From: Escherichia coli
GTDB lineage: Bacteria; Pseudomonadota; Gammaproteobacteria; Enterobacterales; Enterobacteriaceae
Strand: one strand, 5' to 3'
DNA: 64,000 nt
Assembly: GCA_902500055.1 (NCBI GenBank)
Contig: GCA_902500055.1_4131.1
Shown: in pieces, positions 4,512 to 58,268 of the stretch
Layout: the number at the start of each line of letters is the position of its first letter
Numbering within the stretch: position 1 is the stretch's first letter
Notes under the pieces: model-generated
The model's database searches: none
What the model was told of the DNA's origin: nothing
What the model saw: only the letters and a program-made list of their open reading frames with translations
Made by a program: the position numbers and the translations under genes

Positions 4512-4555
4512 CAAAGGGACTGACCGGAGTCAATCCCTTTTTTTATTCTTTTTTG
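4512..4555 (-). terminator. UNCG-tetraloop intrinsic terminator (bidirectional)
   Basis: Hairpin GGGACTGACCGGAGTCAATCCC flanked by A-run and T-run. Confidence 0.5.
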
Positions 4556-4756
4556 TTAGATGATTCTCCAATCATCAACGATCATGGTAAGATACCGAAC
4601 CAGTGATTCGAGTGATTCGTGTTCTCGATAGTCTGCCGCACCGCCAGCGGTACAAGTACAGCCGATTAAGCCGTTTTGCAATTCCTTAATCTGTACATCG
4701 ATAAGGTTGGCTTTAGCTTCTTTCAGTACTTCAACCAGGGCGATAGCGATAGACAT
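4556..4756 (-). CDS. hypothetical protein
   Basis: ORF track 66 aa. Confidence 0.55.
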   Translation of the reverse strand: MSIAIALVEVLKEAKANLIDVQIKELQNGLIGCTCTAGGAADYREHESLESLVRYLTMIVDDWRII

Positions 4757-4778
4757 AATGTTTTACTCCAAACTATTG

Positions 4779-4842
4779 GCGGGAGAACTATTCCCCCGCT
4801 CTATGTAAAACATTATACATTACTGGTTAGTACTGTCAAATA
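4779..4842 (-). promoter_or_regulatory. promoter plus 5' stem-loop cassette (PeSL-like)
   Basis: -35 TTGACA (4835-4840), 17 nt, -10 TATAAT (4812-4817), hairpin GGGAGAACTATTCCCCC. Confidence 0.55.
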
Positions 4843-4846
4843 GTTT

Positions 4847-5104
4847 TTATGAAATATCTTCGATGTAGTCGGCCCATTTCATTTTTTCAGTACTGTCAAG
4901 TGCAATCGGATTGCTAGGATCAAACCATTCACCATTCCCGCAATACATCCCCACGGCGACGGTTTTATATCCATCCTGGGCCGCACTCCACGACATTGCA
5001 CGATAGATATGGCCTTTAACTGGTTGCAGTACTGGTAACGTTTTATGGTCTTCTACGTAGGCCATAGCTTGAGGATTTACCCGATATTGTGTGAATTGAT
5101 CCAT
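4847..5104 (-). CDS. hypothetical protein
   Basis: ORF track 85 aa. Confidence 0.55.
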   Translation of the reverse strand: MDQFTQYRVNPQAMAYVEDHKTLPVLQPVKGHIYRAMSWSAAQDGYKTVAVGMYCGNGEWFDPSNPIALDSTEKMKWADYIEDIS

Positions 5105-5180
5105 TATGTTTCCCCTTGTAGTTAGTAAAGTTATTACATCAGTACTATCAAGCTATGTCAATAGTACTGAAATAAAACTT

Positions 5181-5405
5181 TTAGATTAGATTATTGAGGC
5201 CGTTGATGGTAGACTCGCTTTCTTCTTTCTCCCATTGGCGGTAGTACTTCCATGCTTCATGATATGTGGCGATTAGTTCATCTTTTTGATCCTGGTTACA
5301 TGCCAGTACTGAATCACGGTGAGCGGTGTTATAGATAGAATCGAATGATTTCTTCTCTTCTGCCAGGTTAGCTACTTCCCGCATCAGTTCATCAAAGTTA
5401 GCCAT
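5181..5405 (-). CDS. hypothetical protein
   Basis: ORF track 74 aa. Confidence 0.55.
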   Translation of the reverse strand: MANFDELMREVANLAEEKKSFDSIYNTAHRDSVLACNQDQKDELIATYHEAWKYYRQWEKEESESTINGLNNLI

Positions 5406-5421
5406 TTTATTACTCCTTTTA

Positions 5422-5482
5422 GTGGGGGAGGATATCTCCCCCTATGCAAAACATTATACTTTGTTTTAGTTATTATGCAAGT
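5422..5482 (-). promoter_or_regulatory. promoter plus 5' stem-loop cassette (PeSL-like)
   Basis: -35 TTGCAT (5475-5480), 16 nt, -10 TATAAT (5453-5458), hairpin GGGGGAGGATATCTCCCCC. Confidence 0.55.
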
Positions 5483-5736
5483 ACTTTTTTCATATAAACA
5501 TTAAATTCTACACCGCCGTAACCTTCCACGATGATATGTTTTGCGTTATCACGCTTGCACATAGTGAAACCGTTGTTGATATGTTCTGCATTTTCCAGGG
5601 ATACATCACCGATTGCAGCACATACGGCACTAATAACAGTATTCCGCAAAGTACTGGTATCATTAGCGGTCATAGTAGTTTGCAGTACTACGTTGTCGTA
5701 TACGTGTGCATTGATAGTGATTTCGATAGTGTTCAT
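5473..5736 (-). CDS. hypothetical protein
   Basis: ORF track; start trimmed to Met19 (MNTIEITI) with GGAG RBS. Confidence 0.55.
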   Translation of the reverse strand: MNTIEITINAHVYDNVVLQTTMTANDTSTLRNTVISAVCAAIGDVSLENAEHINNGFTMCKRDNAKHIIVEGYGGVEFNVYMKKVLA

Positions 5737-5754
5737 GGTGTATCTCCTGGACTT

Positions 5755-5818
5755 GAGGGGAAACCATTTCCCCCTCTCGATATAAAACATTATACGTTAA
5801 TCTAACTACAATGCAAGT
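5755..5818 (-). promoter_or_regulatory. promoter plus 5' stem-loop cassette (PeSL-like)
   Basis: -35 TTGCAT (5811-5816), 16 nt, -10 TATAAT (5789-5794), hairpin GGGGAAACCATTTCCCC. Confidence 0.55.
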
Positions 5819-5823
5819 ACTTT

Positions 5824-6015
5824 TTAAATTTTATTTCCGATATAGTCCGGCATGTTCTTTTCAGTCATACGCTTTGCTAATGTCTGCATATGGCTTATAG
5901 CGTTCAAGGTGTCTTCCTCCAGGGATGAATCAAGATAATCAGGATCATTCTTCACCTTGCAATGATTATGATAGCGTAGTACAGCCAGTACTTTTTTAAC
6001 TTCTTCAACTGTCAT
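5824..6015 (-). CDS. hypothetical protein
   Basis: ORF track 63 aa. Confidence 0.5.
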   Translation of the reverse strand: MTVEEVKKVLAVLRYHNHCKVKNDPDYLDSSLEEDTLNAISHMQTLAKRMTEKNMPDYIGNKI

Positions 6016-6284
6016 AATAAGTACCCCACTTCGTTAGCTTTCAGGTTAGTATCAATCATCAGTGGATTTTTGTAGTTCACAAAACGATTAGTTTTCTCGA
6101 TAGCGAATCCCATATAATCCAGCTTGCTTACAGTACATTCATTCTTAAAAACTTCTTTCGCTGTATCGATGGCTGATTGCATGGATAACCGCCCATCTAA
6201 ATTAATGTTTCCAAATGATCCACCAGCAGAAGTAGGATTACCGTTCATATCTTTAATGATCATAGTAGCGGAGTAGCTGGACAT
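6012..6284 (-). CDS. hypothetical protein
   Basis: ORF track 90 aa; ATGA overlap with downstream gene. Confidence 0.55.
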   Translation of the reverse strand: MSSYSATMIIKDMNGNPTSAGGSFGNINLDGRLSMQSAIDTAKEVFKNECTVSKLDYMGFAIEKTNRFVNYKNPLMIDTNLKANEVGYLL

Positions 6285-6372
6285 AATTTTGTTTCCTTTT
6301 ATTGGTGGGGGAGAACTATTCTCCCCTTGATGTAAACTATTATACAGTACTGATATACTTTGTCAAATACTT

Positions 6373-6777
6373 TTATTCGCCCATATAGATTAAGTTATCA
6401 TCGCCTACATAGGGATCGCAAACGTTGATTTCTTCGCAGTACTTCGTGAATACATCGCCATAGTGACCTAAACCACGATCCCAAAAACCAGTTCCGTGAC
6501 CTTCGCGGGTAAGGAACAGATCATGACCAGCTTGCTCATAACCGTAATCAATAAACATACCGCGAACTACTTCCAGATCATTACCGTGTTTCTCAATGAA
6601 GCGAGAACATGCAATCACCGCCGCTTGACGTGCTTCATCAGATAACTCATAATCTTCCAGGTAATCGCCGTTATCATTATGTACAGTACTGAATTGCATA
6701 GCTTCAATGTAACCAGCGACCATTGCAGCATGATTTTTATCGTTGGCGATATTCCGAGCAAGATTAGTAGTAGTCAT
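6373..6777 (-). CDS. hypothetical protein
   Basis: ORF track 134 aa. Confidence 0.6.
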   Translation of the reverse strand: MTTTNLARNIANDKNHAAMVAGYIEAMQFSTVHNDNGDYLEDYELSDEARQAAVIACSRFIEKHGNDLEVVRGMFIDYGYEQAGHDLFLTREGHGTGFWDRGLGHYGDVFTKYCEEINVCDPYVGDDNLIYMGE

Positions 6778-6861
6778 GATTTTATTCCTTTTAGTATCGG
6801 GGAGAACTATTCTCCCCTTGATGTAAACTATTATACAGTACTAAGATACTTTGTCAAATAC

Positions 6862-7083
6862 TTAATTACGTTTAAAATGATATGTACCTTTATCATCCTG
6901 TACGCCCCATACTGATTTACCATCAACACCAGTGAAGCCGGATTGTAATTCAATATGGAAACCATTATTATCAACTACAAAAACTTTTTTATTTTCATCC
7001 CGATAACATTGATATTCTGAATCAACATTAAAGGCCGCATCATTCAGACGATTGGAAGCGTAAATGCAAGTCATTGTAGTCAT
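6862..7083 (-). CDS. hypothetical protein
   Basis: ORF track; start trimmed to Met12. Confidence 0.5.
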   Translation of the reverse strand: MTTMTCIYASNRLNDAAFNVDSEYQCYRDENKKVFVVDNNGFHIELQSGFTGVDGKSVWGVQDDKGTYHFKRN

Positions 7084-7264
7084 GATTTTATTCCTTAATA
7101 TACCAGGGAGAACCATTTCCCCCTCTCGATATAAAACATTATACTTGATTCTAAGTACAATGCAAGTACTTTTTAAAAAATAGTTTTCAGTACTGAATAC
7201 TTATATAATAGATACACTTCCGCACCCTATGGGTCAGTGAGTTATCTCTCAATGGATATATAAT

Positions 7265-7300
7265 AGCAAAGGGACTGACCGGAGTCAATCCCTTTTTTAA
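7265..7300 (-). terminator. UNCG-tetraloop intrinsic terminator (bidirectional)
   Basis: Hairpin GGGACTGACCGGAGTCAATCCC 7271-7292, T-run on plus side. Confidence 0.5.
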
Positions 7301-7306
7301 TCTTTT

Positions 7307-7891
7307 TTATCGTGTTACCTTACTTGCTGCCACATCACGCTTTTTATAGTACTGATTCCAGATATTGCAGGTTAAACCGTAATCAAGTACTTTAATAAGG
7401 CCATTACGATCCTGGCCGATATTCTGTTTTCTGATATCTCTTATCGTTAGTGTTGATAATGTATCATCGACGTGTTGTAGTGCATCAGCAAAGCGGTGCT
7501 GGCGTTCGATTGCATTACGTTTAATATTGTACTTTAATTCATTGCACGCGTTTACGTGCTTCACACTACCTTTGCTTGCAGTACTCAACCGATCCATAAC
7601 GATAAACATATTATCAGGATCGCATAAATGCATATGCACCTTTGCAAAGTACTGTTTCAACTGAGGGCGGTCATAGTCTAAAAAATTCCATACCTTACAT
7701 TCAGTTTCATTTTGTTCTACACCCGCATCACAATTCGCGACCTTAATCACTAACCGATCATTTAAAGCGAAAACTATACGGGAAGAACCAGCACCGATGA
7801 TCTCCAGGCCAGCTAACCGACAAGCTGAAAGGATCTCTTTGTTGGTTTCCATTTCTGACAGTGTACGGATGAATTTAGTATAATTACGCAT
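7307..7891 (-). CDS. eukaryotic-like Ser/Thr protein kinase
   Basis: Gly-rich loop IGAGSSRIVF, VIKV lysine, catalytic loop IRDIRKQNIG, DFG-like IKVLDYG; start trimmed to Met20 with AAGGAGAA RBS. Confidence 0.7.
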   Translation of the reverse strand: MRNYTKFIRTLSEMETNKEILSACRLAGLEIIGAGSSRIVFALNDRLVIKVANCDAGVEQNETECKVWNFLDYDRPQLKQYFAKVHMHLCDPDNMFIVMDRLSTASKGSVKHVNACNELKYNIKRNAIERQHRFADALQHVDDTLSTLTIRDIRKQNIGQDRNGLIKVLDYGLTCNIWNQYYKKRDVAASKVTR

Positions 7892-7922
7892 TGCATGTTC
7901 TCCTTGAGTTAATGAAACTATA

Positions 7923-8165
7923 TTACAGTACTTTACTATCAATGGCAACTACTTTTTTAACATTAACGGCGTGGATCACTTCCTTCGTGTTTTTAGTACT
8001 GAATACTTTCGCCGCTCCTTGTTCGACCGTGATACGATAGCGACCATTAACATCAACCATATTAATAAAGTCCGGCGTGCTGAATGGTGTTGTTTTACAT
8101 TTGAGTACTGTTAACAGTTCCACCAGCGATGTAGTTTCTTTGATACGTTTTTCTAAAGTAATCAT
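7923..8165 (-). CDS. hypothetical protein
   Basis: ORF track; start trimmed to Met20; upstream 57 nt is a repeated promoter (TTGACA-17-TACTAT). Confidence 0.5.
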   Translation of the reverse strand: MITLEKRIKETTSLVELLTVLKCKTTPFSTPDFINMVDVNGRYRITVEQGAAKVFSTKNTKEVIHAVNVKKVVAIDSKVL

Positions 8166-8222
8166 TTTGTTTCCCCCGTGTTGGTATGTACATATAGTAC
8201 TAAAACATTTGAGTACTGTCAA

Positions 8223-8441
8223 TTAGATAATATTATATTTCTTTAAAGATAATGCGTCTTGGGTTGGCTGATACTCGATACCGTTCCCATTATTGACTTC
8301 AACTAATAAACCTTTGTCAATTAGTTTTTTAATAGTACGATACCCCTGTTGAAAATTGGTAAAATGTGAATCATTACGAAAGGTATAACCGTGCTTAACT
8401 GCTTCATCAATAGTTTTCTTTTCGATTTTAGATAATTTCAT
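8223..8441 (-). CDS. hypothetical protein
   Basis: ORF track; start trimmed to Met20; same repeated upstream cassette as 7923-8165. Confidence 0.5.
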   Translation of the reverse strand: MKLSKIEKKTIDEAVKHGYTFRNDSHFTNFQQGYRTIKKLIDKGLLVEVNNGNGIEYQPTQDALSLKKYNII

Positions 8442-8494
8442 TTTGTTTCTCCCGTGTTGGTATGTGTACATAATACTAAAACAATTGAGTACTG

Positions 8495-8749
8495 TCAACG
8501 TGATATTAGTTTTATTTTCTTATTATATTGTTGGTGTTCATATAGGTTTATTTTTCCTGTGTTCTCTATTACTATTCTGTTGTTAGTGTCCACATCGATT
8601 ACACGCAGTTTCCCGTTGCTTAACTTCCTTGGTAATAGGTTACCATTAATAAACTCATTAGCAAGCTGTACGGCCTTTGTGATGATTCTCTTCGGTGCTT
8701 TATAGTGTACCCGTAAGATGTTATCTTTATATAGTTGAACCTTAATCAT
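8495..8749 (-). CDS. hypothetical protein
   Basis: ORF track 84 aa. Confidence 0.5.
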   Translation of the reverse strand: MIKVQLYKDNILRVHYKAPKRIITKAVQLANEFINGNLLPRKLSNGKLRVIDVDTNNRIVIENTGKINLYEHQQYNKKIKLISR

Positions 8750-8761
8750 TTTGTTTGTCCT

Positions 8762-8789
8762 ATAAAAAAGGCGGGATCAGTTCCCGCCG
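8762..8789 (-). terminator. intrinsic terminator
   Basis: Minus strand hairpin GGCGGGAACTGATCCCGCC followed by T-run. Confidence 0.55.
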
Positions 8790-8810
8790 TGTTGTTAGTA
8801 CTGCAAGTTA

Positions 8811-9206
8811 TTAGATAACCTGGCGGCGTTTACTGTATACTGTTACACGATTACCCTTACGATCATGTCGGATCTCTTTCTGGTTGCGAATCAGTTCACT
8901 TGGACGCTTAAGGTTTGCCAGGTGATCCGCGTGAGTCCATGCGGTGTGGTTTACCTGTACTTTGATATCAGAATCAGCGATAAACTCATCTTGTGCGTCA
9001 AGTATTGCCGCCAGCATATCCGCTCGTTTTAGTTCTGCTGCTGTTAGTACTGGCTCAGGTGAATTCACAATATCAGAGATTTCTTTGAACTGTACGGCCC
9101 AGCGTTGACCTTTCGGTGCTGTCGTTCCCATGTCTTTAAATGCTGCTCCTTCCTCGCGTGCAACAATACGGGCAGCTTCACGGGTAGCGTAGAATTTAGT
9201 AATCAT
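8811..9206 (-). CDS. hypothetical protein (paralog of 20866-21132)
   Basis: Shared motifs YFATRE.AR, FKDMG, RWAV, RKGNRVTVY. Confidence 0.6.
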   Translation of the reverse strand: MITKFYATREAARIVAREEGAAFKDMGTTAPKGQRWAVQFKEISDIVNSPEPVLTAAELKRADMLAAILDAQDEFIADSDIKVQVNHTAWTHADHLANLKRPSELIRNQKEIRHDRKGNRVTVYSKRRQVI

Positions 9207-9301
9207 GGTATACATCCTATTAGTTGAGTTAGTACTACAAGTTAGAGTCTATTATAAAGTACTATCTGGGCAATGTCAAATAGTACTTTAAATGGATTCT
9301 A

Positions 9302-9625
9302 TTACATGTCTTTCTTACGTTTTACATCGTAGTAGCGAACTGTTATTTCTTTGTTAATCTCTTTTTCGATGCGGTGAATAACTTTTTCTTTCGGGTTGAA
9401 ACCTATAACGGTTTCTTTAATGATCTCCAAACCAGTGTATTCGCCTTGCGTACCGTAACCGTATGTAAAGGTTTCGTGTCCCAGGTCTTCCCAGCGGTCG
9501 CCAATTAACGCAGACACGTAGCAAGAGTGGTAAGTATTGCCGTTCCGATCAGTCCAGCGATTAACTTTAATGTCAAAGGAGGTTACAATTTTCAATTCCA
9601 CTTTCTGGGTAAGGATCATAGCCAT
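9302..9625 (-). CDS. hypothetical protein (paralog of 15258-15602)
   Basis: ORF track 107 aa; shared YGYG core and C-terminal VKRKKD. Confidence 0.6.
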   Translation of the reverse strand: MAMILTQKVELKIVTSFDIKVNRWTDRNGNTYHSCYVSALIGDRWEDLGHETFTYGYGTQGEYTGLEIIKETVIGFNPKEKVIHRIEKEINKEITVRYYDVKRKKDM

Positions 9626-9712
9626 TTTTATTTCTCTCTCTTTGTTAGGAGGGGAACCATTTCCCCGCCTTGATGTAAACTATTATACAGTACTAAGATA
9701 CTTTGTCAATAC

Positions 9713-9988
9713 TTAAGTATTGTAAATGTCGTGAATAGTGATAAAGTTTTTACGCCCGTAAACCTGTAAATCGGTATTAATGTAATGCTTATCAAGTACA
9801 TCCTCGACGCTTAAAGCCGTGTCGTGAATATCTTCGTAGAATTGAGGATCTACAATCTTGCTTAAGTCATCCGGCGTTAACTTATCGTTAAGCCATTGAA
9901 CCGCCTGGATATCTGCATCACGTTTCCATTGTTCCAGGTTAGTAGTCAGTACTTGTTCGATTTCGTTAGCTGTCAGTAGAATCCGCAT
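9713..9988 (-). CDS. hypothetical protein
   Basis: ORF track 91 aa; preceded by long duplicated leader. Confidence 0.55.
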   Translation of the reverse strand: MRILLTANEIEQVLTTNLEQWKRDADIQAVQWLNDKLTPDDLSKIVDPQFYEDIHDTALSVEDVLDKHYINTDLQVYGRKNFITIHDIYNT

Positions 9989-10002
9989 TTTAATGTTTCC
10001 TT

Positions 10003-10190
10003 ATCAGTGGTTGATGTAAGTATTATACTCGTTTACTTTCTATTGTCAAACTATTTTATCAGGGGAGTTTTTCGTATGTCTTACTCCTGGACTACTTAAC
10101 GGGGTTACTTGTTTCGTTCCCCGTCCTGATGTAAAACATTATACTTGATTCTAAGTACAATGCAAGTACTTTTTAAAAATAGTTTTCAGT
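10003..10190 (-). repeat. duplicated leader cassette with tandem promoters (copy 1 of 2)
   Basis: Near-identical to 20138-20320; contains TTGACA-16-TATAAT plus PeSL-type promoter and two hairpins. Confidence 0.6.
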
Positions 10191-10312
10191 ACTTGATAGT
10201 ACTAGCCACCAGCAAACAATAGATACATTTATGCACCCGGTGGGCTAATTTGTTTCTATGCGTATATAATAGCAAAGGGACTGACCGGAGTCAATCCCTT
10301 TTTCAATTATTT

Positions 10313-10462
10313 TTAAACTTCTTTCGGGTTGCGATAGGTGATAGCGTTCGGGTACATTTGTTTAATGTTATTCCATGCCTGGTTAACATTATAACCACTT
10401 GAGCGAATCAGTTGGTTACTACCGACACCTTGAAACACTACTTCAAATAAGAATTCTTTCAT
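10313..10462 (-). CDS. hypothetical small protein (49 aa, below ORF-track cutoff)
   Basis: Manual translation MKEFLFEVVFQG...; ATGA overlap with upstream gene stop. Confidence 0.4.
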   Translation of the reverse strand: MKEFLFEVVFQGVGSNQLIRSSGYNVNQAWNNIKQMYPNAITYRNPKEV

Positions 10463-10632
10463 GCTTTCACCTCGCTATCTGCTTTGCCTTTACGCCAGGC
10501 CGTTGCTAATTGTTCGCGTTGCCATAAGTCGAGTGATACGTAAAGTTTTGCATTATCACCCTTCGGATATTCGCCAGTAGTACCAATCCGATAAAACAGA
10601 TCTTTCAGTACTGTTAATTCTACCTGGACCAT
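10459..10632 (-). CDS. hypothetical small protein
   Basis: ORF track; start trimmed to Met35 (MVQVELTV) with AGAGGA RBS. Confidence 0.5.
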   Translation of the reverse strand: MVQVELTVLKDLFYRIGTTGEYPKGDNAKLYVSLDLWQREQLATAWRKGKADSEVKA

Positions 10633-10718
10633 TATACTTTCCTCTTTGTTAGGAGGGGAACTATTCCCCTTCCGATATAAAACATTATACACTTTATTCA
10701 GTACAGTGCAAGTACTTT

Positions 10719-10931
10719 TTAATCTTTCAGCCAATGATCCTGAATGAATTTTTCACCGAAACCTTGCTGCATTGATTGTAACAGACGTTCGCGATGAGCG
10801 GCGGCGAATTGCTCAGTACTATGCGTTACACCTGGTTGATATCTGGATTCACCATTGGGGGCGATGTATTGTACATCCCACGGTTTTTCGTTAGTATCAG
10901 ACCATTTACGAACGATTAGTTGACCTTGCAT
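10719..10931 (-). CDS. hypothetical protein
   Basis: ORF track 70 aa. Confidence 0.5.
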   Translation of the reverse strand: MQGQLIVRKWSDTNEKPWDVQYIAPNGESRYQPGVTHSTEQFAAAHRERLLQSMQQGFGEKFIQDHWLKD

Positions 10932-11017
10932 TTTTCTTTCCTCTTAGTGGGGAGAATCATTTTCTCCCCTTCATGTAACTTATTATACAGTACTATAATC
11001 TATTGTCCAGTACTTTT

Positions 11018-11206
11018 TTACAGTTTATGAATTAATTCTTTATCTAAGCGATAGCGTACATTATTAATGGTAACAGCATTATTTTTAATGCTACGCTGTA
11101 CGGGTCCACCAGCAATAACAAACGTTGCTTTATTGCCCCGAACAATGATAGCACTTCCAGGATTACCGAAATCATCTTGTACTAAAATACTTGATAAGTT
11201 TTCCAT
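11018..11206 (-). CDS. hypothetical protein
   Basis: ORF track 62 aa. Confidence 0.5.
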   Translation of the reverse strand: MENLSSILVQDDFGNPGSAIIVRGNKATFVIAGGPVQRSIKNNAVTINNVRYRLDKELIHKL

Positions 11207-11284
11207 TTTTATTTCCTCTTAGTAGGGGAAGATGTTTCCCCTTGATGCAAGTACTATAACAGTACTGAAAACTAAATGCAAGTA

Positions 11285-11641
11285 CTATGATAAAATCATG
11301 ATAGGATATTCACTATCTATCAATACCTCGAATCCGAAACCTTCGTACCATTCTTTAAGATTAAAGGCGTTATCTTCTCCCGTATCGCATTCTAAGATGA
11401 TACAATCTGAATCATCGGCGGCATCGATAAAGGCATTCATTAATTCGTTACCTTCACCATTGCCCCGACTATCAGGATCAACATAAAGAGAATCAATAAA
11501 CGCTACACGGTCATAATCAAGATCCGGTGCAATGATTCCACGTTTAACAAACCAGTACTGCAATTGTGCTACTTTGCCCTGTACCTGATAACCAGTGATC
11601 TCTCCATTGTCAGTAGTACGCGTGATATGTTGTATTCCCAT
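11285..11641 (-). CDS. GNAT-like N-acetyltransferase (putative)
   Basis: Motif YVDPDSRGNGEGNELMNAF (R-G-x-G-x-G acetyl-CoA loop) and C-terminal WYEGFGFE. Confidence 0.45.
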   Translation of the reverse strand: MGIQHITRTTDNGEITGYQVQGKVAQLQYWFVKRGIIAPDLDYDRVAFIDSLYVDPDSRGNGEGNELMNAFIDAADDSDCIILECDTGEDNAFNLKEWYEGFGFEVLIDSEYPIMILS

Positions 11642-11705
11642 GATTACTATCCTCAGTTAAGATATAAAACATTATACACTATCTTTCAGTACTGTCAATT
11701 ACTTT

Positions 11706-11963
11706 TTATCTCATAGATCTATGCCAACAATTACGCGGTTGACGTTTAAAAATACTATCATGATCCTCCTGGCAAGTTATGCAGTACTTACACCCCTTAA
11801 CGACCTGGCGGCGATTCTCAGGGATTTTATCGCCGCAGTCGAGGCAATGTATCAGTGATTCTATTTGTGCGTTAATTTGCGTTCTAGCGTGGTTAACAGC
11901 AGCCTGAATCACTGCGTTAATCTCGTCTTGTTCGGCCCCATCTTTCGCGAATCCTACAGCCAT
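11706..11963 (-). CDS. TraR/DksA-family C4 zinc-finger protein (putative)
   Basis: CLDCGDKIPENRR...CKYCITC four-cysteine motif. Confidence 0.55.
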   Translation of the reverse strand: MAVGFAKDGAEQDEINAVIQAAVNHARTQINAQIESLIHCLDCGDKIPENRRQVVKGCKYCITCQEDHDSIFKRQPRNCWHRSMR

Positions 11964-12293
11964 TATTTTAACCTCATTATAAAAATACTATAGTACTGTA
12001 ATGCGACAATAATATTACTTGTTCTTACTTTTTCCAATCCACATGATACCACATATTCATTACCATATGTGCGGAACGATACACCATGAAAATTTTTATA
12101 CACTTGCACTACTAATCATAACCTTTCGTCTAACCAACTGCATAGAATTATACTACTTTACGCAAATTGATCAAGTATTGATCAGATCATTTTTGATCAA
12201 TATTATACAGTTACATTTGTGCACCCTATGGGTTAGTGACGTTCTCGTCTTGATGTAAGTATTATGCCAGTACTGGATGATATTGTCAATAGA

Positions 12294-12491
12294 TTATTTT
12301 AATTTTTTTCTGTCATTGATTAATGCTTTCAGTACTATACTAATGATTTGCAATGATTCATCAATGACTATAAAATTATTTTCTTTCATTAGATGATAGT
12401 TACCATTGATTGTATATTCTAAGGAGTACTGTTTACGTTTAATTTTTGATAATGTTTCTATTTGTTTTTGTACTGATTTCATGCTAATCAT
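12294..12491 (-). CDS. hypothetical protein
   Basis: ORF track 65 aa. Confidence 0.45.
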   Translation of the reverse strand: MISMKSVQKQIETLSKIKRKQYSLEYTINGNYHLMKENNFIVIDESLQIISIVLKALINDRKKLK

Positions 12492-12596
12492 TGGTAAACG
12501 TCCTGTAACGCATTCTAACGAGATAAACGGTTGAGTACTGGCATTGTATAGGGTAATGAATTAAAGCCCACCAGCGTTAACCAGTGGGCTATAATC

Positions 12597-12740
12597 TTAC
12601 ATCTTGCGGATAATCTTAACAGTATCTTTCACCGATTTACCGTTTTGCTGACATTGCTCGATCATCGCGTATTGTTCTGCGGTCAGATCCTCGCCAGTTT
12701 TTGCCAGTACTGCGTCGATGAATGAATCCAGTGCGATCAT
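12597..12740 (-). CDS. hypothetical small protein (47 aa)
   Basis: Manual translation MIALDSFIDAVLAK...; RBS-like AGAGAGAGAAACAAA upstream; hairpin downstream. Confidence 0.4.
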   Translation of the reverse strand: MIALDSFIDAVLAKTGEDLTAEQYAMIEQCQQNGKSVKDTVKIIRKM

Positions 12741-12832
12741 TTTGTTTCTCTCTCTTAGGTTAAGTTAACTACTGTTTATAAAACTTATTATACAGTACTA
12801 TCAAACGTTGTCAATAGTACTGGTAATATATT

Positions 12833-13045
12833 TTAATTGATGATGGTTAATGTAAAGTTATAATCCCCTGCCTGGTATAGTACTTTATCGCCGAACGTGC
12901 CGACACGTTTCATATTGCAATAGATACCCATAACACTTTTTACATCTTTGATATTCCGAACGCCCGTAATATCCTTGTTTAAATGATCGTGATCAGAAAA
13001 TAAAACTTGTTTTGCATTTTTCAGTACAGTGCAGATATTAGCCAT
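12833..13045 (-). CDS. hypothetical protein
   Basis: ORF track 70 aa. Confidence 0.5.
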   Translation of the reverse strand: MANICTVLKNAKQVLFSDHDHLNKDITGVRNIKDVKSVMGIYCNMKRVGTFGDKVLYQAGDYNFTLTIIN

Positions 13046-13141
13046 TTTGTTTTCTCTCTCTGTTAGTGGGGAGAAGTTTTTCTCCCCTTGATGTAAACTA
13101 TTATACAGTACTATAATCTATTGTCAAACTATTTTTTTATA

Positions 13142-13483
13142 TTATTCGAAATCTTCTGGACCGGACTGATAATCATCTTCACCGTATGCACTTTCTAACT
13201 TCTCGCCAGTGTGATCATCAGTTAGTGAATCATCCTCATAATTCACGTCTACGCCTACAATGTAAAACTGGCTATCGTCTGGATCATTGAAATTAATTTT
13301 CTGAATGTTTACAATAACTGTATTGATGCCCAGGACACAGCCATCAGCCGTTACAAAGTACTGATATTTTTCACAACCGCCTGAATTGAAACCGTAATTA
13401 ATTTCGGCCCGACCATCATTTAAACGCAGTGCCTGGGCGATGATTTCATTTTCAAAGTTAGATTGAGCAATTGAGATAGTCAT
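13142..13483 (-). CDS. hypothetical acidic protein
   Basis: ORF track 113 aa. Confidence 0.55.
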   Translation of the reverse strand: MTISIAQSNFENEIIAQALRLNDGRAEINYGFNSGGCEKYQYFVTADGCVLGINTVIVNIQKINFNDPDDSQFYIVGVDVNYEDDSLTDDHTGEKLESAYGEDDYQSGPEDFE

Positions 13484-13697
13484 GATTTGTTTCCTTATTA
13501 CCAGGGGAAACCGTTTCCCCTTTCGATGTAAAACATTATACGCTTATTGAGATAGTTTGCAAGTACTTTTTAAAAATAGTTTTCAGTACTCAATACTTAT
13601 ATAATAGATACACTTATGCACCCGGTGGGCTAGTGAGCTATCTCTCAATGAATATATAATAGCAAAATGGCTGACCGAAGTCAACCACTTTTTTCAT

Positions 13698-13832
13698 TTA
13701 TTTTTTAGCTTTCAGTACTGCCGCCTTTCGCGTCATGCCTTGCTTAATGTACTCCTTTACTTTCGCTTTACGTGCTTTCGCTTTATCTGCTTTCGTTTTA
13801 GGAGTACTGTAAATTAAACCGTTAGGATTCAT
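13698..13832 (-). CDS. hypothetical small basic protein (44 aa)
   Basis: Manual translation MNPNGLIYSTPKTKADKAKARKAK...; terminator hairpin downstream; weak RBS. Confidence 0.3.
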   Translation of the reverse strand: MNPNGLIYSTPKTKADKAKARKAKVKEYIKQGMTRKAAVLKAKK

Positions 13833-13918
13833 TTAAATCACCATAAAGAATAGATAGGTTACTAACAATGCCGCGATCAATGCACCGATCACCGCTGAAC
13901 TGTAATAAGCTAATGATT

Positions 13919-14071
13919 TCATTTTTTAGCCTGAAAATAATGTTTAATTTGAGCGGCGGTCAGTGCACAATTACGCAGGAAGTTTTCTGTATAACTTTTG
14001 CGAGTACTGAAAGAGAATTGACCTTTGCCGTTACCGATAGTAACATCAAACCGAGCGTTGTATTGTTTCAT
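13919..14071 (-). CDS. hypothetical small protein
   Basis: ORF track; start trimmed to Met11. Confidence 0.45.
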   Translation of the reverse strand: MKQYNARFDVTIGNGKGQFSFSTRKSYTENFLRNCALTAAQIKHYFQAKK

Positions 14072-14152
14072 TTTGTTTCTCCTGTTATTGGGGAGAATCA
14101 TTTCTCCCCTTCATGTAAACTATTATACAGTACTAAAAACTAATTGCAAGTA

Positions 14153-14299
14153 CTATTTTTTAGATTTACGCAAACTTTCTACCATCTCAGGAGTAAGGCC
14201 CGGCGGGTAGGAAACTACTTCATCAACGAAACGTAAAGGGAATACCCCAGCGAAAGGTGAACGTGCTTTCTTAGTATTACTCTTTTTTGATGCTTTCAT
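14153..14299 (-). CDS. hypothetical small basic protein (48 aa)
   Basis: Manual translation MKASKKSNTKKARSPF...; AAGGAA RBS; PeSL upstream. Confidence 0.4.
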   Translation of the reverse strand: MKASKKSNTKKARSPFAGVFPLRFVDEVVSYPPGLTPEMVESLRKSKK

Positions 14300-14368
14300 T
14301 TCATATTCCTTAATTAGTGGGGAGAATCATTTCTCCCCTTCATGTAAAACATTATACGCGTTTAAAAA

Positions 14369-14578: not shown

Positions 14579-14583
14579 ATTAA

Positions 14584-14856: not shown

Positions 14857-14907
14857 GGTATAATCCCCAATATAAGCGGCCTGAATCGACCGCTAACGAT
14901 GTTTTGA

Positions 14908-15177: not shown

Positions 15178-15257
15178 TATACGATCCTCTTAAGTTAATT
15201 TAATTTCTTTCCCCTATGCAGACACTATATCAAAGTATCTGCATAAAGTAAAGCTAA

Positions 15258-17431: not shown

Positions 17432-17436
17432 TGTAC

Positions 17437-47434: not shown

Positions 47435-47469
47435 GGTTTGTCTCCTTCGTTTCGATATAGATATAATAG

Positions 47470-47505
47470 CAAAAGGGCCGACCTAAGTCAACCCTTTTTT
47501 TATTC
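47470..47505 (-). terminator. UNCG-type tetraloop terminator (bidirectional)
   Basis: GGGCCGACCTAAGTCAACCC with T-run. Confidence 0.45.
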
Positions 47506-47864: not shown

Positions 47865-47929
47865 TTCCGATTCCTCATTAGTTGGTGTACATACATAATA
47901 CAGTTAAATGAGTACGGTGTCAATACCTT

Positions 47930-52349: not shown

Positions 52350-52382
52350 TACTTTATCCTCTGTAGTTAATACCAACATCAT

Positions 52383-52420
52383 AACAAAAAAGGCTGACCG
52401 AAGTCAACCTTTTGTTTTAT
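52383..52420 (-). terminator. UUCG-tetraloop intrinsic terminator (bidirectional)
   Basis: Minus strand GGTTGACTTCGGTCAGCC followed by TTTTTTGTT. Confidence 0.6.
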
Positions 52421-53679
52421 CATTTACCGTATTTGCTCATGATATCCTTTTCCCAAGGAGTTACATTTCCATTTTCGTAATCACGGAAAGAGTCATCAAG
52501 TGTAGTCAATGCATAATCATATGCCTCACCGGATTCAACATCAATGTCAACAGCACCATTCACTACATCAGTCCACGCTTTTTGTAGTTTACGAGCGTTG
52601 TTACCAACTTTATCTTTAATCCAACTAAGATTTCGGTTTATACTCTTCTTATCAGCACCAGCTTTTTCACCAACATCTGCAACCCATTGCATTAATTTCT
52701 GTAGTTCGTTATGGGATTTTTCAGTCATTTGGCGGTCTTGTGACAGTTCAGCTTCCATGTCATCAATTTCTTCGTCTGAATGAACATCATTCTGTTCTAC
52801 TGCACCTTCTTCATCATCACGCATCAGATAACCATCTCGTGTAACCTTCTCACCATGATCAGCTTCATACTTTTTCATAGTATTGAATGCAGCATCCATT
52901 GCAGTTACAAAACGACTCTTTTCACCTTGTACATAAGATTTAAGTGCATCGTTAACTGCATCAGATACTAATTTAATCTTATCGTCTTTACCTTCCAGAC
53001 GGTTTTCTAACTTAGCTAGTACATTCTTAACTTGTTGAGCATTAGCACGGTCTTCTTTACCAATACTATCAAATGTTTTAAGTACGCTTTCAAGACTTAC
53101 TTCCTCTTGTGCAGGCACATCACCTTGTTGCGTACCTTCAAGTGCACGCATTATAGTACTGAATACTTCAGTTGGTTCAGTACTGGTATTTCCACTCATT
53201 GCATCAAGTACAGCTTGTGCTTTGACTTTTAATTCTTCTTTAGGTACAGATTGCAATTCTTTCACAATACCTTGGATAAGTTGTGGTTTATTAGCAAAAA
53301 TCTTACCTAACTTATCAGACAGTTCTTTGACAGGGTTAACCGCCTTTGGTGCTTCTTGTTTTGGTTCTTCTTTCGCAGGAGCAGACTTTTCTTTTTCTTC
53401 ACGTTCCATATCAGCTAGACGTTGTTTTTGTGTAGCATTAAGAAGTCCCAATGAATTAACATAACGTAGCTTTTCTAGCTCAGTCATGTTCTCAGTACTC
53501 TTAACTTCACCTGCTTCTGCGTTTGCCTTACCAGCAAGTCCCGTTCCTTGGTTTCTGGAACCACGTGAACCTTGTCCTGCTTGATAACTATTTTTGCGAC
53601 GATTTCGGTCGGCCCATTTATCCGAGTGTTGTACTAGTCCACCATTACGATGTTTCATATCCCCATTATCTTGTGGCAT
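52420..53679 (-). CDS. hypothetical acidic coiled-coil protein with basic N-terminus
   Basis: ORF track 419 aa; shares YVNSLGLL region with 55024-55407. Confidence 0.65.
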   Translation of the reverse strand: MPQDNGDMKHRNGGLVQHSDKWADRNRRKNSYQAGQGSRGSRNQGTGLAGKANAEAGEVKSTENMTELEKLRYVNSLGLLNATQKQRLADMEREEKEKSAPAKEEPKQEAPKAVNPVKELSDKLGKIFANKPQLIQGIVKELQSVPKEELKVKAQAVLDAMSGNTSTEPTEVFSTIMRALEGTQQGDVPAQEEVSLESVLKTFDSIGKEDRANAQQVKNVLAKLENRLEGKDDKIKLVSDAVNDALKSYVQGEKSRFVTAMDAAFNTMKKYEADHGEKVTRDGYLMRDDEEGAVEQNDVHSDEEIDDMEAELSQDRQMTEKSHNELQKLMQWVADVGEKAGADKKSINRNLSWIKDKVGNNARKLQKAWTDVVNGAVDIDVESGEAYDYALTTLDDSFRDYENGNVTPWEKDIMSKYGK

Positions 53680-53683: not shown

Positions 53684-54226
53684 TTAATCCTCTATCCATG
53701 TTTGATTGTATAAAATACGACGTATTGTTTTTTTACATACACGGTATTTATTACAATTTTCTCGTGCATATTCTATCACATCATTATAATTATCATTATA
53801 ATCTTTTCTTATTTCTCTTACAATTTCCCATGTCAACACAGCAGCACCACGATTAGTTGTTGCGTTACCATGTGAATAAGAATATAGTACGTTTTCAGAT
53901 GCTGTGTTCCATTCCAAATTCAAATAGTGATTGTTACTTCTATTACAATCTTTATGGTTTATGTGAACAACTTTTTTCTTTGTTCTACTCGCCCACTGTA
54001 ACTGTTTCTGTGTGGGTGGTGGTAAAAATGCTTCAGCTACTAGTCGATGAATCGCCTTTCTATTTTTCACAGAATTGCGATACAAATCGACCTTCACATA
54101 CCCATCTTTATTTTTAAATCCACAACTTATATATCCAGTTTGTTCGTTTCTTACTCTTCCATGATCAGAAATTGAATAGTCATAATCAGGAATTAATTTC
54201 CAACGTTCCATGTTTATTTCTTCCAT
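53684..54226 (-). CDS. HNH homing endonuclease
   Basis: N-terminal WKLIPDY...YSISDHGRVRN, HRLVAEAF, HINH.D..R.NN...NLEW. Confidence 0.75.
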   Translation of the reverse strand: MEEINMERWKLIPDYDYSISDHGRVRNEQTGYISCGFKNKDGYVKVDLYRNSVKNRKAIHRLVAEAFLPPPTQKQLQWASRTKKKVVHINHKDCNRSNNHYLNLEWNTASENVLYSYSHGNATTNRGAAVLTWEIVREIRKDYNDNYNDVIEYARENCNKYRVCKKTIRRILYNQTWIED

Positions 54227-54229
54227 TAT

Positions 54230-54265
54230 ATATAAAGGTTGACCGAAGTCAACCCTATTTTCACT
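54230..54265 (-). terminator. UUCG-tetraloop intrinsic terminator
   Basis: GGTTGACCGAAGTCAACC perfect hairpin. Confidence 0.5.
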
Positions 54266-54833: not shown

Positions 54834-54989
54834 GATATCCCTTATTTGGTTTGTTCAACACTAGGTGTATTGATATAGGTGTCAATTGAATAACATACTG
54901 TACCCACTACAACAGCAGCGATTAGGGCAGCAACTACAAATTTCAAACCTTGCATATATGATACCTCAGTTATATTGAGAAGTTATGAT

Positions 54990-55030
54990 ACAACAAAGGG
55001 CTGACCTTAGTCAACCATTTTTATTACTTC
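54990..55030 (-). terminator. tetraloop intrinsic terminator
   Basis: GGCTGACCTTAGTCAACC with flanking A/T runs. Confidence 0.45.
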
Positions 55031-55966: not shown

Positions 55967-55979
55967 TACGATTCCCCAT

Positions 55980-56552
55980 TCATAAATCACGAACAATATT
56001 CATTAAACACAATTTAGGCTTTATAGAATTCAAAACCCATATGCACTCTTTGTAAGTAGCTATTATATCATCTAAATGCTCAGTCACAATACTTTCTTGA
56101 AAATATTCTTCATCATTGAGCTTTGCTAATTTAGTAACATCACATGTAGGCACTATAGGTCTGGATTGTACACCCATTCCATTATTGATATTAGTGAAAT
56201 GTACAAAATGGTACTTCACAACACCTTTATCTAGATTTATTATACATGACAAATTTTCCAACTCAGTTAGTTTTTTATTACAAGTAACATTAATGAAACC
56301 AGCATTATAGGCTCTATAATCATCTACTGATATCTCAAAATCATTACGTTCAAATATAAGTGAAATGAGTTGGTCCAGTGGTTTGACATTCATATATTTT
56401 AATGAATTTACGTATGATACTTCAATCTTAGATGAAATTATCTTTTTACTAAGTGCAGTTAAATCTTTGTTAGATTTAACTGTTAAAACAATAGGTTTAA
56501 ACCTAGAACTTTTGTTCTTTTTTGATACTTTAAAACGACCTTTACGATTCAT
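55980..56552 (-). CDS. hypothetical protein
   Basis: ORF track; start trimmed to Met9. Confidence 0.5.
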   Translation of the reverse strand: MNRKGRFKVSKKNKSSRFKPIVLTVKSNKDLTALSKKIISSKIEVSYVNSLKYMNVKPLDQLISLIFERNDFEISVDDYRAYNAGFINVTCNKKLTELENLSCIINLDKGVVKYHFVHFTNINNGMGVQSRPIVPTCDVTKLAKLNDEEYFQESIVTEHLDDIIATYKECIWVLNSIKPKLCLMNIVRDL

Positions 56553-56559
56553 AATTTCC

Positions 56560-56781
56560 TCAATTAATAATTTCACATTTAACGTGTGGTTTATATAGCA
56601 TAATTAACCCATTTTTAAGTACAATGATTGTTGCTCTGTTAGTAATCGAAACGTTTTTAATTATACTTTTTTTATATGTTTCAACATATTTCTCTTCATA
56701 ATTTATACATTTAACATATTCTTTTTGTTTAGCACTTACAACAGTACTGAATAATATCAGTACAAGTACTATATATTTCAT
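56560..56781 (-). CDS. secreted small protein (signal peptide)
   Basis: N-terminus MKYIVLVLILFSTVVSA. Confidence 0.5.
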   Translation of the reverse strand: MKYIVLVLILFSTVVSAKQKEYVKCINYEEKYVETYKKSIIKNVSITNRATIIVLKNGLIMLYKPHVKCEIIN

Positions 56782-56833
56782 TACTATACCTTATAAACAA
56801 AAAGGAATTCATTTAAGAATTCCTATTTTACAA

Positions 56834-57127
56834 TCATTTATCTAACATACCATTGTGTAAACGTTCATATACTTCAGTTCGACGCAAATTCACAATATCT
56901 TCTGCGTATTTTAATGTAAATGCCCATGCTTTTGGATGTACGTTAAGCTTCATACGAATTCGATTTTTCATCAACTCTCCACTTAAACGAATAAATTCGT
57001 GTACACCACGACTACCGTATTCAGTAATTAAATCATTAATGTACATATCACGAAGAGTTTCATCTGCACATTCTTTAACCATTTCTACGTCAGCGACGAT
57101 GCTTTCATTAACTGAAGTACTGATCAT
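56834..57127 (-). CDS. hypothetical protein
   Basis: ORF track 97 aa. Confidence 0.5.
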   Translation of the reverse strand: MISTSVNESIVADVEMVKECADETLRDMYINDLITEYGSRGVHEFIRLSGELMKNRIRMKLNVHPKAWAFTLKYAEDIVNLRRTEVYERLHNGMLDK

Positions 57128-57138
57128 TTTAATTTACC

Positions 57139-57405
57139 TTATTTAAATTCGACTGTAATTTTATCACCTTCAACTACGAACTTACAGTTGTAGCGACGTG
57201 CCATATCCATGTACATATGCTCAGAGTACCAAGGAACATCAATAATCGGATGCTCTGCATATTGTAGAACTTCACGGTCGCCCACTGTAGTAATGATGAA
57301 AGGAATGTTCATCTCTCGTAAAAACAGTTCAGCACCAGGAGAACGATTAATAAATTCAGTATCATTACGTAAAGTAAATCCATTATATTGTAATTTAAGC
57401 TTCAT
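57139..57405 (-). CDS. hypothetical protein
   Basis: ORF track 88 aa. Confidence 0.5.
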   Translation of the reverse strand: MKLKLQYNGFTLRNDTEFINRSPGAELFLREMNIPFIITTVGDREVLQYAEHPIIDVPWYSEHMYMDMARRYNCKFVVEGDKITVEFK

Positions 57406-57419
57406 ATGTTATCCTCTAT

Positions 57420-57764
57420 TCAATACCATTCTTTAAAACCATTAAGTTCGGCTACGTGAGTGATTATAACACATATAACATTCAGGTCAAGTATAATTTG
57501 ATCATAATTTAATTTTATACGATCATCATTATATGCTCTAAAAACTACATCGTAATCAAAGAAATTTGCGTTTTCATCATTCATTGAAACGATTCGGTAT
57601 CTACGTCTTCCATCTGTATTGAATATAGTTAAACACTGTTGAAACTTTCTCATTAACTGTTTAGATAGGATATTATAATATTCAATATCTTTTTGTGAAT
57701 TACGTGGGTCATCAGGAAGATAGAATGAAACAAATTTCTTTAATTCTATTTGAGTTTTATCCAT
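57420..57764 (-). CDS. hypothetical protein
   Basis: ORF track 114 aa. Confidence 0.5.
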   Translation of the reverse strand: MDKTQIELKKFVSFYLPDDPRNSQKDIEYYNILSKQLMRKFQQCLTIFNTDGRRRYRIVSMNDENANFFDYDVVFRAYNDDRIKLNYDQIILDLNVICVIITHVAELNGFKEWY

Positions 57765-58197
57765 ATATTACCTCATGTGTTTCTCTTTTACTTTGTCGGA
57801 ACTCATCCTTTGCTTCCTTAACTGACATGATACGAACTAATTTAGCACTACCGCAATAGTACTGAACCTGATTACGACCAATGTCTACATGGTGGTCTGG
57901 AACTTCATATACAGATATAGCAAACCCAGCACGATGCAATTTACCTAAGTCCATAGTGAAGAATCTGAACAAATCTTTCAAACTTTGACAGCCAAATACC
58001 CATCCACTTTTGATTGAATAGATCCCATCCTCAGTTGGTTCAGGTTGGAATTGAGAAGGTGTAGTCATGAGCAAACGGTCAAATCCATTTTTAGTACTGT
58101 ATCTGGTTGAATACCGTGCAAACGGACCTACAGTTCGTGCAGGATCTAAGTTAGGTTCAATGTAACTAAATTTAAGTTCAAAACGATATACATACAT
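57757..58197 (-). CDS. hypothetical protein
   Basis: ORF track 146 aa. Confidence 0.55.
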   Translation of the reverse strand: MYVYRFELKFSYIEPNLDPARTVGPFARYSTRYSTKNGFDRLLMTTPSQFQPEPTEDGIYSIKSGWVFGCQSLKDLFRFFTMDLGKLHRAGFAISVYEVPDHHVDIGRNQVQYYCGSAKLVRIMSVKEAKDEFRQSKRETHEVIYG

Positions 58198-58231
58198 AAT
58201 TAAAATCCTCTAATTTATTAAGAGAATTATA

Positions 58232-58268
58232 ACAAAAAAGGCTGACCGAAGTCAACCTTTGTTTTGAA
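58232..58268 (-). terminator. UUCG-tetraloop intrinsic terminator (bidirectional)
   Basis: AAAAAAGGCTGACCGAAGTCAACCTTTGTTTTG. Confidence 0.55.

Follow-up and report, generated by a model that had tools for sequence, protein, structure and literature searches.

Composite promoter-terminator cassettes called promoter-early stem-loops (PeSLs) were described in the T4-type phages RB49 and phi1, where a strong sigma70-like promoter is combined with a stem-loop that is an effective terminator, and the whole lies between small genes in hyperplastic regions (Arbiol et al. 2010, PMC2839356). Five PeSL subclasses are distinguished by the position of the stem-loop, one of which overlaps the -35 box; promoter and terminator activities were shown with lacZ reporters, and recombination of neighbouring PeSLs leads to indels and mini-circles (PMC2839356). 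The concept was extended to T4/PST and KVP40/nt-1, with A3-4G3-loop-C3T3-4 given as the nt-1 stem consensus (Comeau et al. 2014, PMC4122927). Here we analysed a 64,000-nt stretch (hereafter the window) of contig GCA_902500055.1_4131.1 from the Escherichia coli assembly GCA_902500055.1, which carries nine copies of a short intergenic hairpin. We suggest that these sites are probably compact, one-directional terminator-promoter cassettes in an early-type region of an Asteriusvirus, on its minus (gene) strand, an arrangement that is largely known already from the PeSL cassettes of T4-type phages.

All sequence-level hallmarks of a PeSL were found in the nine elements, whereas residence in a T4-type genome was not. 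The elements combine a sigma70-like -35/N17/-10 promoter and an AT-rich upstream tract with a stable stem-loop predicted to act as a terminator or attenuator, they are placed between the stop codon of a small gene and the Shine-Dalgarno (SD) motif plus ATG of the next, they recur many times among small genes with no known function, and they are found at indel or replacement junctions between close relatives (two genomes were compared here). A hairpin over the -35 box constitutes one published PeSL subclass (PMC2839356), the nt-1/KVP40 consensus fits the clamp seen here (PMC4122927), and KVP40, a described PeSL carrier, has multiple copies of GGGTTGAC-N4-GTCAGCCC. Unlike the published examples, the genome in question belongs to an Asteriusvirus jumbo phage and not to a T4-type phage, a difference that concerns the host range of the concept rather than its mechanism; moreover, the -35 box here always lies within the 5' arm and the loop is mostly a UNCG tetraloop. 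A literature search found no paper on PeSLs in Asteriusvirus or RaK2-like phages.

Two other known systems share individual traits with these sites. Hairpins capped by C(UUCG)G were reportedly found in T4 intercistronic regions by Tuerk and co-workers in 1988; our literature search for CUUCGG terminators in bacteriophage returned no relevant open-access paper. The window hairpins resemble C(UUCG)G-capped Rho-independent terminators in their G+C-clamped stem, their C(UNCG)G loop (seven of nine copies) and their U-rich tail, but differ in that the overlapping promoter fixes the stem and the TGn/-10 element that follows cuts the U-tract short. Lambdoid morons, in turn, are also self-contained transcription units added to or lost from a phage genome, but in morons the regulatory sequences are neither conserved repeats nor believed to drive mobility (PMC2839356), whereas here the repeated cassette itself marks the junctions.

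Nine strand-biased hairpins between tandem genes

By megablast, the window belongs to Asteriusvirus, being a 121Q/G17-like jumbo coliphage (95-98% identity, patchy coverage); this group comprises E. coli jumbo phages of ~350-380 kb, such as 121Q, PBECO4, G17 and phAPEC6. Open reading frames (ORFs) and GC skew placed the genes at ~1-24 kb and 44-64 kb on the minus strand and those at ~28-43.5 kb on the plus strand. All nine hairpins lie inside the minus-strand blocks, which are crowded with small genes of unknown function. Rfam searches at gathering thresholds matched no family anywhere in the window, and ARAGORN detected neither transfer RNA nor transfer-messenger RNA in it.

A search for GGYTGACCGRAGTCARYC with up to two mismatches returned nine matches, all in the plus-strand orientation, at positions 4518, 7273, 10279, 13669, 47476, 52392, 54237, 54999 and 58240, compared with 0.01 expected; none of 100 shuffles reached nine. 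Raising the limit to three mismatches added no new member in the window, and a relaxed scan for TTGAC-N3-9-GTCRR recovered these nine and, at 20517, a single weak relative. A first-pass annotation of the same DNA, made from the letters alone, had proposed at least nine such hairpins at gene ends. This proved correct: there are nine, in a single orientation, and every one follows the stop codon of a minus-strand ORF. The intervening gap is 7-22 nt in eight cases, while at 58240 the TGA of the upstream ORF lies within the hairpin; two of the ORFs upstream of hairpins are short (44 and 49 amino acids).

Read on the minus strand, each copy has the form (A)n-GG(G)-TTGAC-loop-GTC(A/G)(G/A)-CC(C)-(T)n. 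The consensus offered by the first-pass annotation captured the family of nine at up to two mismatches but is matched exactly by only four copies. Three of the others (4518, 7273 and 10279) read GACTGAC..GTCAATC, with a compensated A-U pair. The minus-strand loops, said to be UUCG or UCCG, are so in seven copies (UUCG in four, UCCG in three), each a UNCG tetraloop with a C-G closing pair on the transcribed strand; those at 47476 and 54999 are UUAG and UAAG, respectively. Likewise, the flanking A-run and T-run are present in general, but they are weak at 54237, which is a mismatch-free perfect palindrome.

In eight of the nine copies, a U.G wobble on the minus strand corresponds to a C.A mismatch on the plus strand. 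The core energies of these eight copies were -8.4 to -9.5 kcal/mol for the minus strand, compared with -1.8 to -4.5 kcal/mol for the plus strand (ViennaRNA), so that the strand-biased stability proposed earlier was upheld in these eight. With the flanks included, the minus-strand free energy ranged from -10.7 to -19.5 kcal/mol, for stems of 7-12 bp.

A scan for a stem followed by a T-run scored eight of the nine hairpins as minus-strand terminators; its only plus-strand call among them was the palindromic 54237. The minus-strand tails contain 4-7 T within the first 8 nt 3' of the stem, and the usual features of a Rho-independent terminator (a G+C-containing stem, a loop of 3-8 nt and a U-rich tail) were found by the scan on the minus strand in eight copies. 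The GenBank record of G17 carries the entry 'putative transcriptional terminator, determined by ARNOLD', on the gene strand, at the counterparts of eight of the nine hairpins (the eight checked); 54237 is specific to the window and has no G17 counterpart. The hairpins thus look like intrinsic terminators of the transcribed minus strand, and this part of the finding is already public, as a prediction in the G17 record.

A predicted sigma70-like promoter overlapping each hairpin

The 5' arm of the hairpin together with the first loop base spells TTGACT, a sigma70 -35 box that the first-pass annotation had overlooked. A promoter scan of the minus strand gave the same arrangement in all nine copies, namely TTGACT followed at 16, 17 or 18 nt by TATTAT, TATAAT, TATGAT or TATCAT. 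The -10 box matches the consensus at five or more of six positions in all nine, compared with a background chance of 0.032 per site (calculated over every window position), and it is preceded by TGn in seven, compared with a background of 0.009 (TGn at the looser threshold of four of six). Because the -35 box lies inside the hairpin, the sequence of the stem is conserved. In five copies an SD sequence and an ATG are found 13-30 nt past the -10 box, whereas the remaining four (4518-13669) carry a conserved leader and a second promoter ahead of the gene. RNAalifold analysis of this leader yielded a weak G.U-rich hairpin only, with covariation absent, and no structured RNA is proposed for it.

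The 24 nt upstream of the hairpin promoters have an A fraction of 0.38-0.75, compared with 0.34 in the background, and contain A-runs 4-7 long. The hairpin-less promoters of the window also carry an A-tract, 3-4 nt upstream of the -35 box, with a mean longest A-run of 4.6 compared with 2.6 in the background. The minus-strand A-run, which is the plus-strand T-run, stands where the proximal subsite of an UP element would sit (consensus AAAAAARNR at -46 to -38). UP-like elements on RpoD-like promoters of a RaK2-like phage are documented in the CBB paper (PMC5259590). Since the hairpin-less promoters carry the same A-tract, the A-run and T-run need no bidirectional explanation, and the A-run is better read as a putative UP-like element and stem extension.

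Several further features were observed around the promoters of the window. A motif, CCCAYNGGGTGC, occurs in nine exact copies (minus strand: 4473, 7223, 10234, 12222, 13619 and 20453; plus strand: 18476, 20395 and 22550), with 14 hits at up to one mismatch compared with 2.7 expected. It always stands downstream of a strong promoter, ~25-35 nt from the -10 box; the four hairpin promoters 4518-13669 are among these. A small covarying hairpin precedes the motif, and its copies at 20395(+) and 20453(-) converge and overlap. The motif also follows the same elements in the IMG/VR loci L002, L011, L018, L025 and L084. It gave no Rfam hit and no convincing consensus structure; a leader, a small RNA or a protein site are candidate roles. 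A candidate antisense small RNA of ~100 nt (~18419-18560, plus strand), opposite minus-strand genes, would comprise a promoter (TTGACA-17-CATAAT with TG, 18419-18447), the copy of the motif at 18476 and a terminator-like hairpin with a T-run (18528-18548).

A separate repeat family of at least 25 cassettes of ~100 nt was observed on the minus strand at 3883-23305 (for instance 3883-3979, 7079-7175, 13476-13572 and 18771-18867). These cassettes consist of an A-tract, TTGCA(A/T) or TTGACA, a 16-nt spacer and TATAATG, followed by a hairpin in the 5' untranslated region (GGGGAGAAnnnnTTCTCCCC and covarying variants), an SD sequence and an ATG. This promoter plus leader stem-loop stands ahead of nearly every small gene and may represent another PeSL-like class. 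Furthermore, the 8-bp palindrome CAGTACTG occurs in 72 copies compared with 1.03 expected, in both coding and intergenic DNA and most densely at 20-24 kb. It fills the spacer and adjoins the -10 box in many promoters (CAGTACTGTATAAT), and its half-sites are found inside plus-strand terminator stems.

Hairpin and promoter-like signals are coupled across phage lineages

The exact 18-mer GGTTGACTTCGGTCAGCC was found in 56 copies on 39 IMG/VR stretches. All but two of these (54/56) carry the A-run, the hairpin, the T-run and a -10-like box, mostly TGn-extended, and in most copies an SD sequence and ATG or the conserved leader then follows. A set unbiased with respect to the loop was assembled by searching for GGGTTGAC-N4-GTCAGCCC, which gave 128 distinct contexts. 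Of these, 96 have a -10 box matching at five or more of six positions at a distance of 16-18 nt; the remaining 32 include several boxes matching at four of six, such as CATTAT, and ~10 G+C-rich chance hits. The loops of the coupled members are UNCG in 41% and GNRA in 15%, compared with 1.6% and 3.1% by chance.

Among 61 distinct 30-nt cores, 93% of the cells are paired; the three innermost pairs, being fixed by the selection of the set, were given no weight. TTGAC is invariant in these cores, and its pairing partners switch only between A and G. The outer G/C clamp, by contrast, covaries: 19 cells show a double change, a number that none of 500 shuffles attained and that exceeds those of all slid registers. 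The stem proper contains 74 G.U cells, able to pair on the gene strand only, compared with one A.C cell, which would pair on the other strand only. With 74 G.U cells to one A.C cell, there is no sign of a selected plus-strand hairpin; no other observation speaks as strongly against a selected function on the plus strand. The hairpin appears to have been kept by selection only in the RNA read in the direction of the promoter.

Matches to a 40-nt consensus were found in the Asteriusviruses of Escherichia and Salmonella, in RaK2-like phages of Klebsiella, Erwinia, Yersinia, Serratia and Pectobacterium, and in Vibrio KVP40-like phages and Aeromonas phage 65. IMG/VR copies mapped to Vibrio phage VH7D, to KVP40 itself and to the Gram-positive Brochothrix phage A9, an SPO1-like phage. 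In A9 (HM242243; loci L024 and L030), GGTTGACTTCGGTCAGCC is present twice, with the same T-run, a TGTTATTAT -10 box, an SD sequence and an ATG. The identity of the A9 18-mer is probably due to convergence, the -35/-10 consensus and the UUCG loop being common across bacteria. The flanks of the element differ from lineage to lineage, and we infer, more generally, convergence on a sequence that would be nearly dictated by the need for TTGAC as the -35 box, for a tetraloop whose first base is U and for a G/C-clamped complementary arm. A metagenomic contig with five elements (locus L003) had no relative in the phage collection.

In the record of Yersinia phage fHe-Yen9-03, a -35/-10 pair is annotated on the same element. 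The -10 box is TGCTATACT, and the annotators' -35 box is placed differently and is poorly spaced. A literature search with the exact sequence TTGACTTCGGTCA returned one unrelated regulon paper only, and nothing was found on promoters or terminators of Asteriusvirus or on fHe-Yen9-04 promoters.

Elements at indel junctions

We compared the window with G17 and 121Q. The element at 47476, single in the window, is represented in both relatives by a pair flanking differing cassettes, of 1.4 kb with two genes in G17 and of 2.2 kb with three genes, including an endonuclease gene, in 121Q. The element at 52392 is also single in the window, and its G17 pair flanks 1.04 kb with three genes; here the alignment overlaps on the element itself. 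An 866-bp segment of G17 that contains one ORF, denV and an element is missing from the window, and the junction coincides with the shared TTGAC of a hairpin-less promoter (47895..47923). In three junction events, counted against G17 and 121Q, the breakpoints fall at a distance of 6-23 nt from an element. In G17 coordinates, 4 of 12 breakpoints lie within 25 nt of an element, compared with ~2% expected by position (p ~1e-4, binomial).

Conversely, a 1.28-kb segment is specific to the window and absent from both G17 and 121Q. It includes a free-standing homing endonuclease gene with HNH_3 and NUMOD4 domains (53687-54211, minus strand), which has a hairpin-promoter of its own, the palindromic 54237. 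These junctions support, but do not prove, PeSL-type shuffling.

Proposed mechanism and alternative explanations

If the sites are terminator-promoter cassettes, the upstream transcript would fold into (A)nGGG-UUGAC-UUCG-GUCAG-CCC-(U)n and stop in the U-tract, and the terminated RNA would keep a 3' end capped by a stable tetraloop hairpin. In the DNA, the 5' arm and first loop base would serve as the TTGACT -35 box of sigma70, the remaining loop, 3' arm and T-run would form the promoter spacer of 16-18 bp, and the TGn-extended -10 hexamer would come next, with the upstream A-run acting as an UP-like element. Host RNA polymerase would then start a new transcript for the next gene a few bases past the end of the previous one, and this fresh start would insulate each small gene or cassette. 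Furthermore, the repeated cassette of ~40-70 bp could double as a recombination site for the gain, loss and swap of genes between related phages. Under such a scheme, the stem would be conserved rather than freely covarying because of the -35 constraint, and the partner of the first U would usually be G because a wobble preserves the hairpin in the RNA yet avoids a mirror-image TTGAC on the opposite strand. Termination, initiation and recombination are activities that we infer for the cassettes from their sequence.

Several observations weigh against this reading. Five of the window copies belong to one 68-nt repeat (family D17), and the copies are consequently not independent; because these five share the repeat, per-site p-values overstate the case within the window, although the data from across lineages make up for it. 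Copies of the 4518 type have a short U-tract (UUUGCUAUU), at which termination may be partial, that is, attenuation. Two genes flanking hairpins encode virion structural proteins according to the 121Q annotation, which leaves the 'early' timing class tentative. The junctions were compared with two close relatives that share history. Finally, the published PeSL -35 consensus, TTGYVH, is no literal match to TTGACT (PMC4122927).

Among the alternatives, a polymerase hand-off would turn the cassettes into termination-coupled re-initiation devices, in which the RNA is released in the spacer while the polymerase is on the -35/-10 pair. We consider this unlikely, even though E. coli RNA polymerase often stays on the DNA after intrinsic termination and re-initiates nearby (PMC6978380, PMC6978322). 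If true, it would provide a fresh, insulated transcript for each early gene at a high rate, the near-identical 18-mer of enterobacterial jumbo phages, Vibrio and Aeromonas T4-type phages and a Gram-positive Brochothrix phage would represent convergence on one optimal design, and a natural system linking intrinsic termination to re-initiation would be at hand.

It is also quite unlikely that the sites are plain minus-strand terminators, in which the TTGACT and the TATAAT-like box arose by duplication of the cassette in AT-rich DNA and no transcription starts. The G17 annotation of terminators alone and the 68-nt repeat shared by five window copies are compatible with this idea, as is the abundance of promoter-like hits in AT-rich DNA (96 in the 44-64 kb segment compared with 94.6 in shuffles). 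However, the -10 boxes and the sequences downstream of them vary between copies while the spacing stays at 16-18 nt; the coupling extends to 96 of the 128 loop-unbiased members and to many phage lineages, including a Gram-positive phage; TTGAC is fixed while its pairing partners vary; and the SD sequence and ATG are found at a promoter-appropriate distance.

Bidirectional intrinsic terminators between convergent genes are known from bacterial 3'-end mapping, and the first-pass annotation had proposed that the hairpins, although tuned to the minus strand, can also terminate plus-strand read-through; in such a model, their A-run and T-run would be kept to stop antisense transcription. The two flanking runs are indeed a point of resemblance, the plus-strand hairpin is followed by T-runs of 5-7, the 4518-type fold with flanks still reaches -13.2 kcal/mol on that strand, and the palindromic 54237 scores as a plus-strand terminator. 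Yet the other eight copies were not called on the plus strand, where their cores are weak, and the two strands differ in stability (eight of nine, G.U compared with A.C). Moreover, all nine hairpins stand between co-directional (tandem) minus-strand genes and none between convergent units, the family stems show the 74-to-1 excess of G.U over A.C cells, and the hairpin-less promoters have the same A-tract upstream. We therefore regard plus-strand termination as very unlikely and this part of the earlier proposal as unsupported.

A DNA-level operator, at which a dimeric phage or host regulator would bind over the early promoter and for which the RNA hairpin is incidental, is highly improbable: the conserved inverted repeat does overlap the -35 box, and the genome has other over-represented palindromes such as CAGTACTG, but the half-sites are systematically unlike in the DNA (TTGAC compared with CTGAC) in a way that preserves RNA G.U pairing, the clamps covary via G.U intermediates, the enriched UNCG and GNRA tetraloops are relevant in RNA only, and a T-run follows the stem. 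We rejected a palindromic operator on the G.U asymmetry, and an RNase III processing site was rejected as well, the stems being only 7-12 bp.

Implications of the proposed terminator-promoter cassettes

The element that the G17 record lists as a terminator is listed as a promoter in that of fHe-Yen9-03; it appears to be both, which would correct a habit of annotation. If the cassettes act as proposed, the PeSL concept would be widened from T4-type phages to the 121Q/RaK2-like jumbo phages. A simple search rule, TTGAC in the 5' arm of a hairpin with a TGn -10 box 16-18 nt on, could mark the boundaries of transcription units and the likely recombination joints among hundreds of unannotated small genes. 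In addition, a compact insulator of 40 bp could serve as a part for synthetic biology.

Coordinates and neighbouring features

Table 1 Positions of the nine hairpin-promoter elements and of one hairpin-less promoter in the window (promoter, terminator and leader assignments are predictions)
Feature	Extent	Strand	Stem	Loop	Upstream ORF end	-35 box	Spacer (nt)	-10 box	Downstream	Remarks
Element 1	4505..4544	-	4513-4540 (12 bp with A/U extension)	UCCG	stop 4556-4558	TTGACT 4528-4533	17	TGn + TATTAT 4505-4510	conserved leader and second promoter, then gene start 4309	A-run 4538-4544; homologous G17 site annotated as terminator
Element 2	7260..7301	-	7268-7295	UCCG	stop 7307-7309	TTGACT 7283-7288	17	TGn + TATTAT 7260-7265		terminator annotation in G17
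Element 3	10266..10306	-	10274-10301	UCCG	49-aa ORF, 10313	TTGACT 10289-10294	17	TGn + TATTAT 10266-10271		
Element 4	13656..13697	-	13664-13691	UUCG	44-aa ORF, 13698	TTGACT 13679-13684	17	TGn + TATTAT 13656-13661		
Element 5	47463..47503	-	47471-47498	UUAG (not UNCG)	stop 47505-47507	TTGACT 47486-47491	17	TGn + TATTAT 47463-47468	SD AAGGAG, ATG 47434, 28 nt past -10	second wobble, GTCGG
Element 6	52378..52417	-	52388-52413	UUCG	stop 52420-52422	TTGACT 52402-52407	18	TGn + TATGAT 52378-52383	SD GAGGA, ATG 52349; gene homologous to 121Q protein kinase gene	
Element 7	54225..54258	-	54235-54256	UUCG		TTGACT 54247-54252	16	TATAAT 54225-54230	HNH/NUMOD4 homing endonuclease gene from ATG 54211	perfect palindrome
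Element 8	54985..55022	-	54999-55016 (7 bp)	UAAG (not UNCG)	stop 55024-55026	TTGACT 55009-55014	18	TATCAT 54985-54990	SD GAGG and ATG of small 37-aa ORF, ~30 nt on	terminator annotation in G17
Element 9	58226..58264	-	58237-58260	UUCG	TGA 58252-58254	TTGACT 58250-58255	18	TGn + TATAAT 58226-58231	SD GAGGA, ATG 58197	triple overlap: TGA of upstream ORF inside -35 TTGACT, which is the 5' arm of the terminator stem; homologous G17 coding sequence overlaps annotated terminator
Hairpin-less promoter	47895..47923	-				TTGACA	17	TATTAT		-35 box is the junction of the 866-bp difference from G17

Outside the minus-strand blocks, an array of ~10 paralogous genes of 240-415 amino acids is found on the plus strand (28309-43468). 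Their products have a common N-terminus, MLPF(V/A/G)RM..YGN, and are regulator-of-chromosome-condensation-like according to the annotation of relatives. Between these paralogs lies a third type of cassette, in which a terminator hairpin and its T-run (GCCAGTACnnnnGTACTGGC plus T-run) precede TAAATATAGTATAATGAATAAAGGAGG and an ATG; TAAATATAGTATAATGAATAAAGGAGG is a promoter-like box without a -35 element and is possibly of the middle or late type. Between the two gene blocks, at 22749-22900, there is a degenerate tandem array with an 8-nt period, made up of units resembling CGTCTAGC and CATCCAGC.

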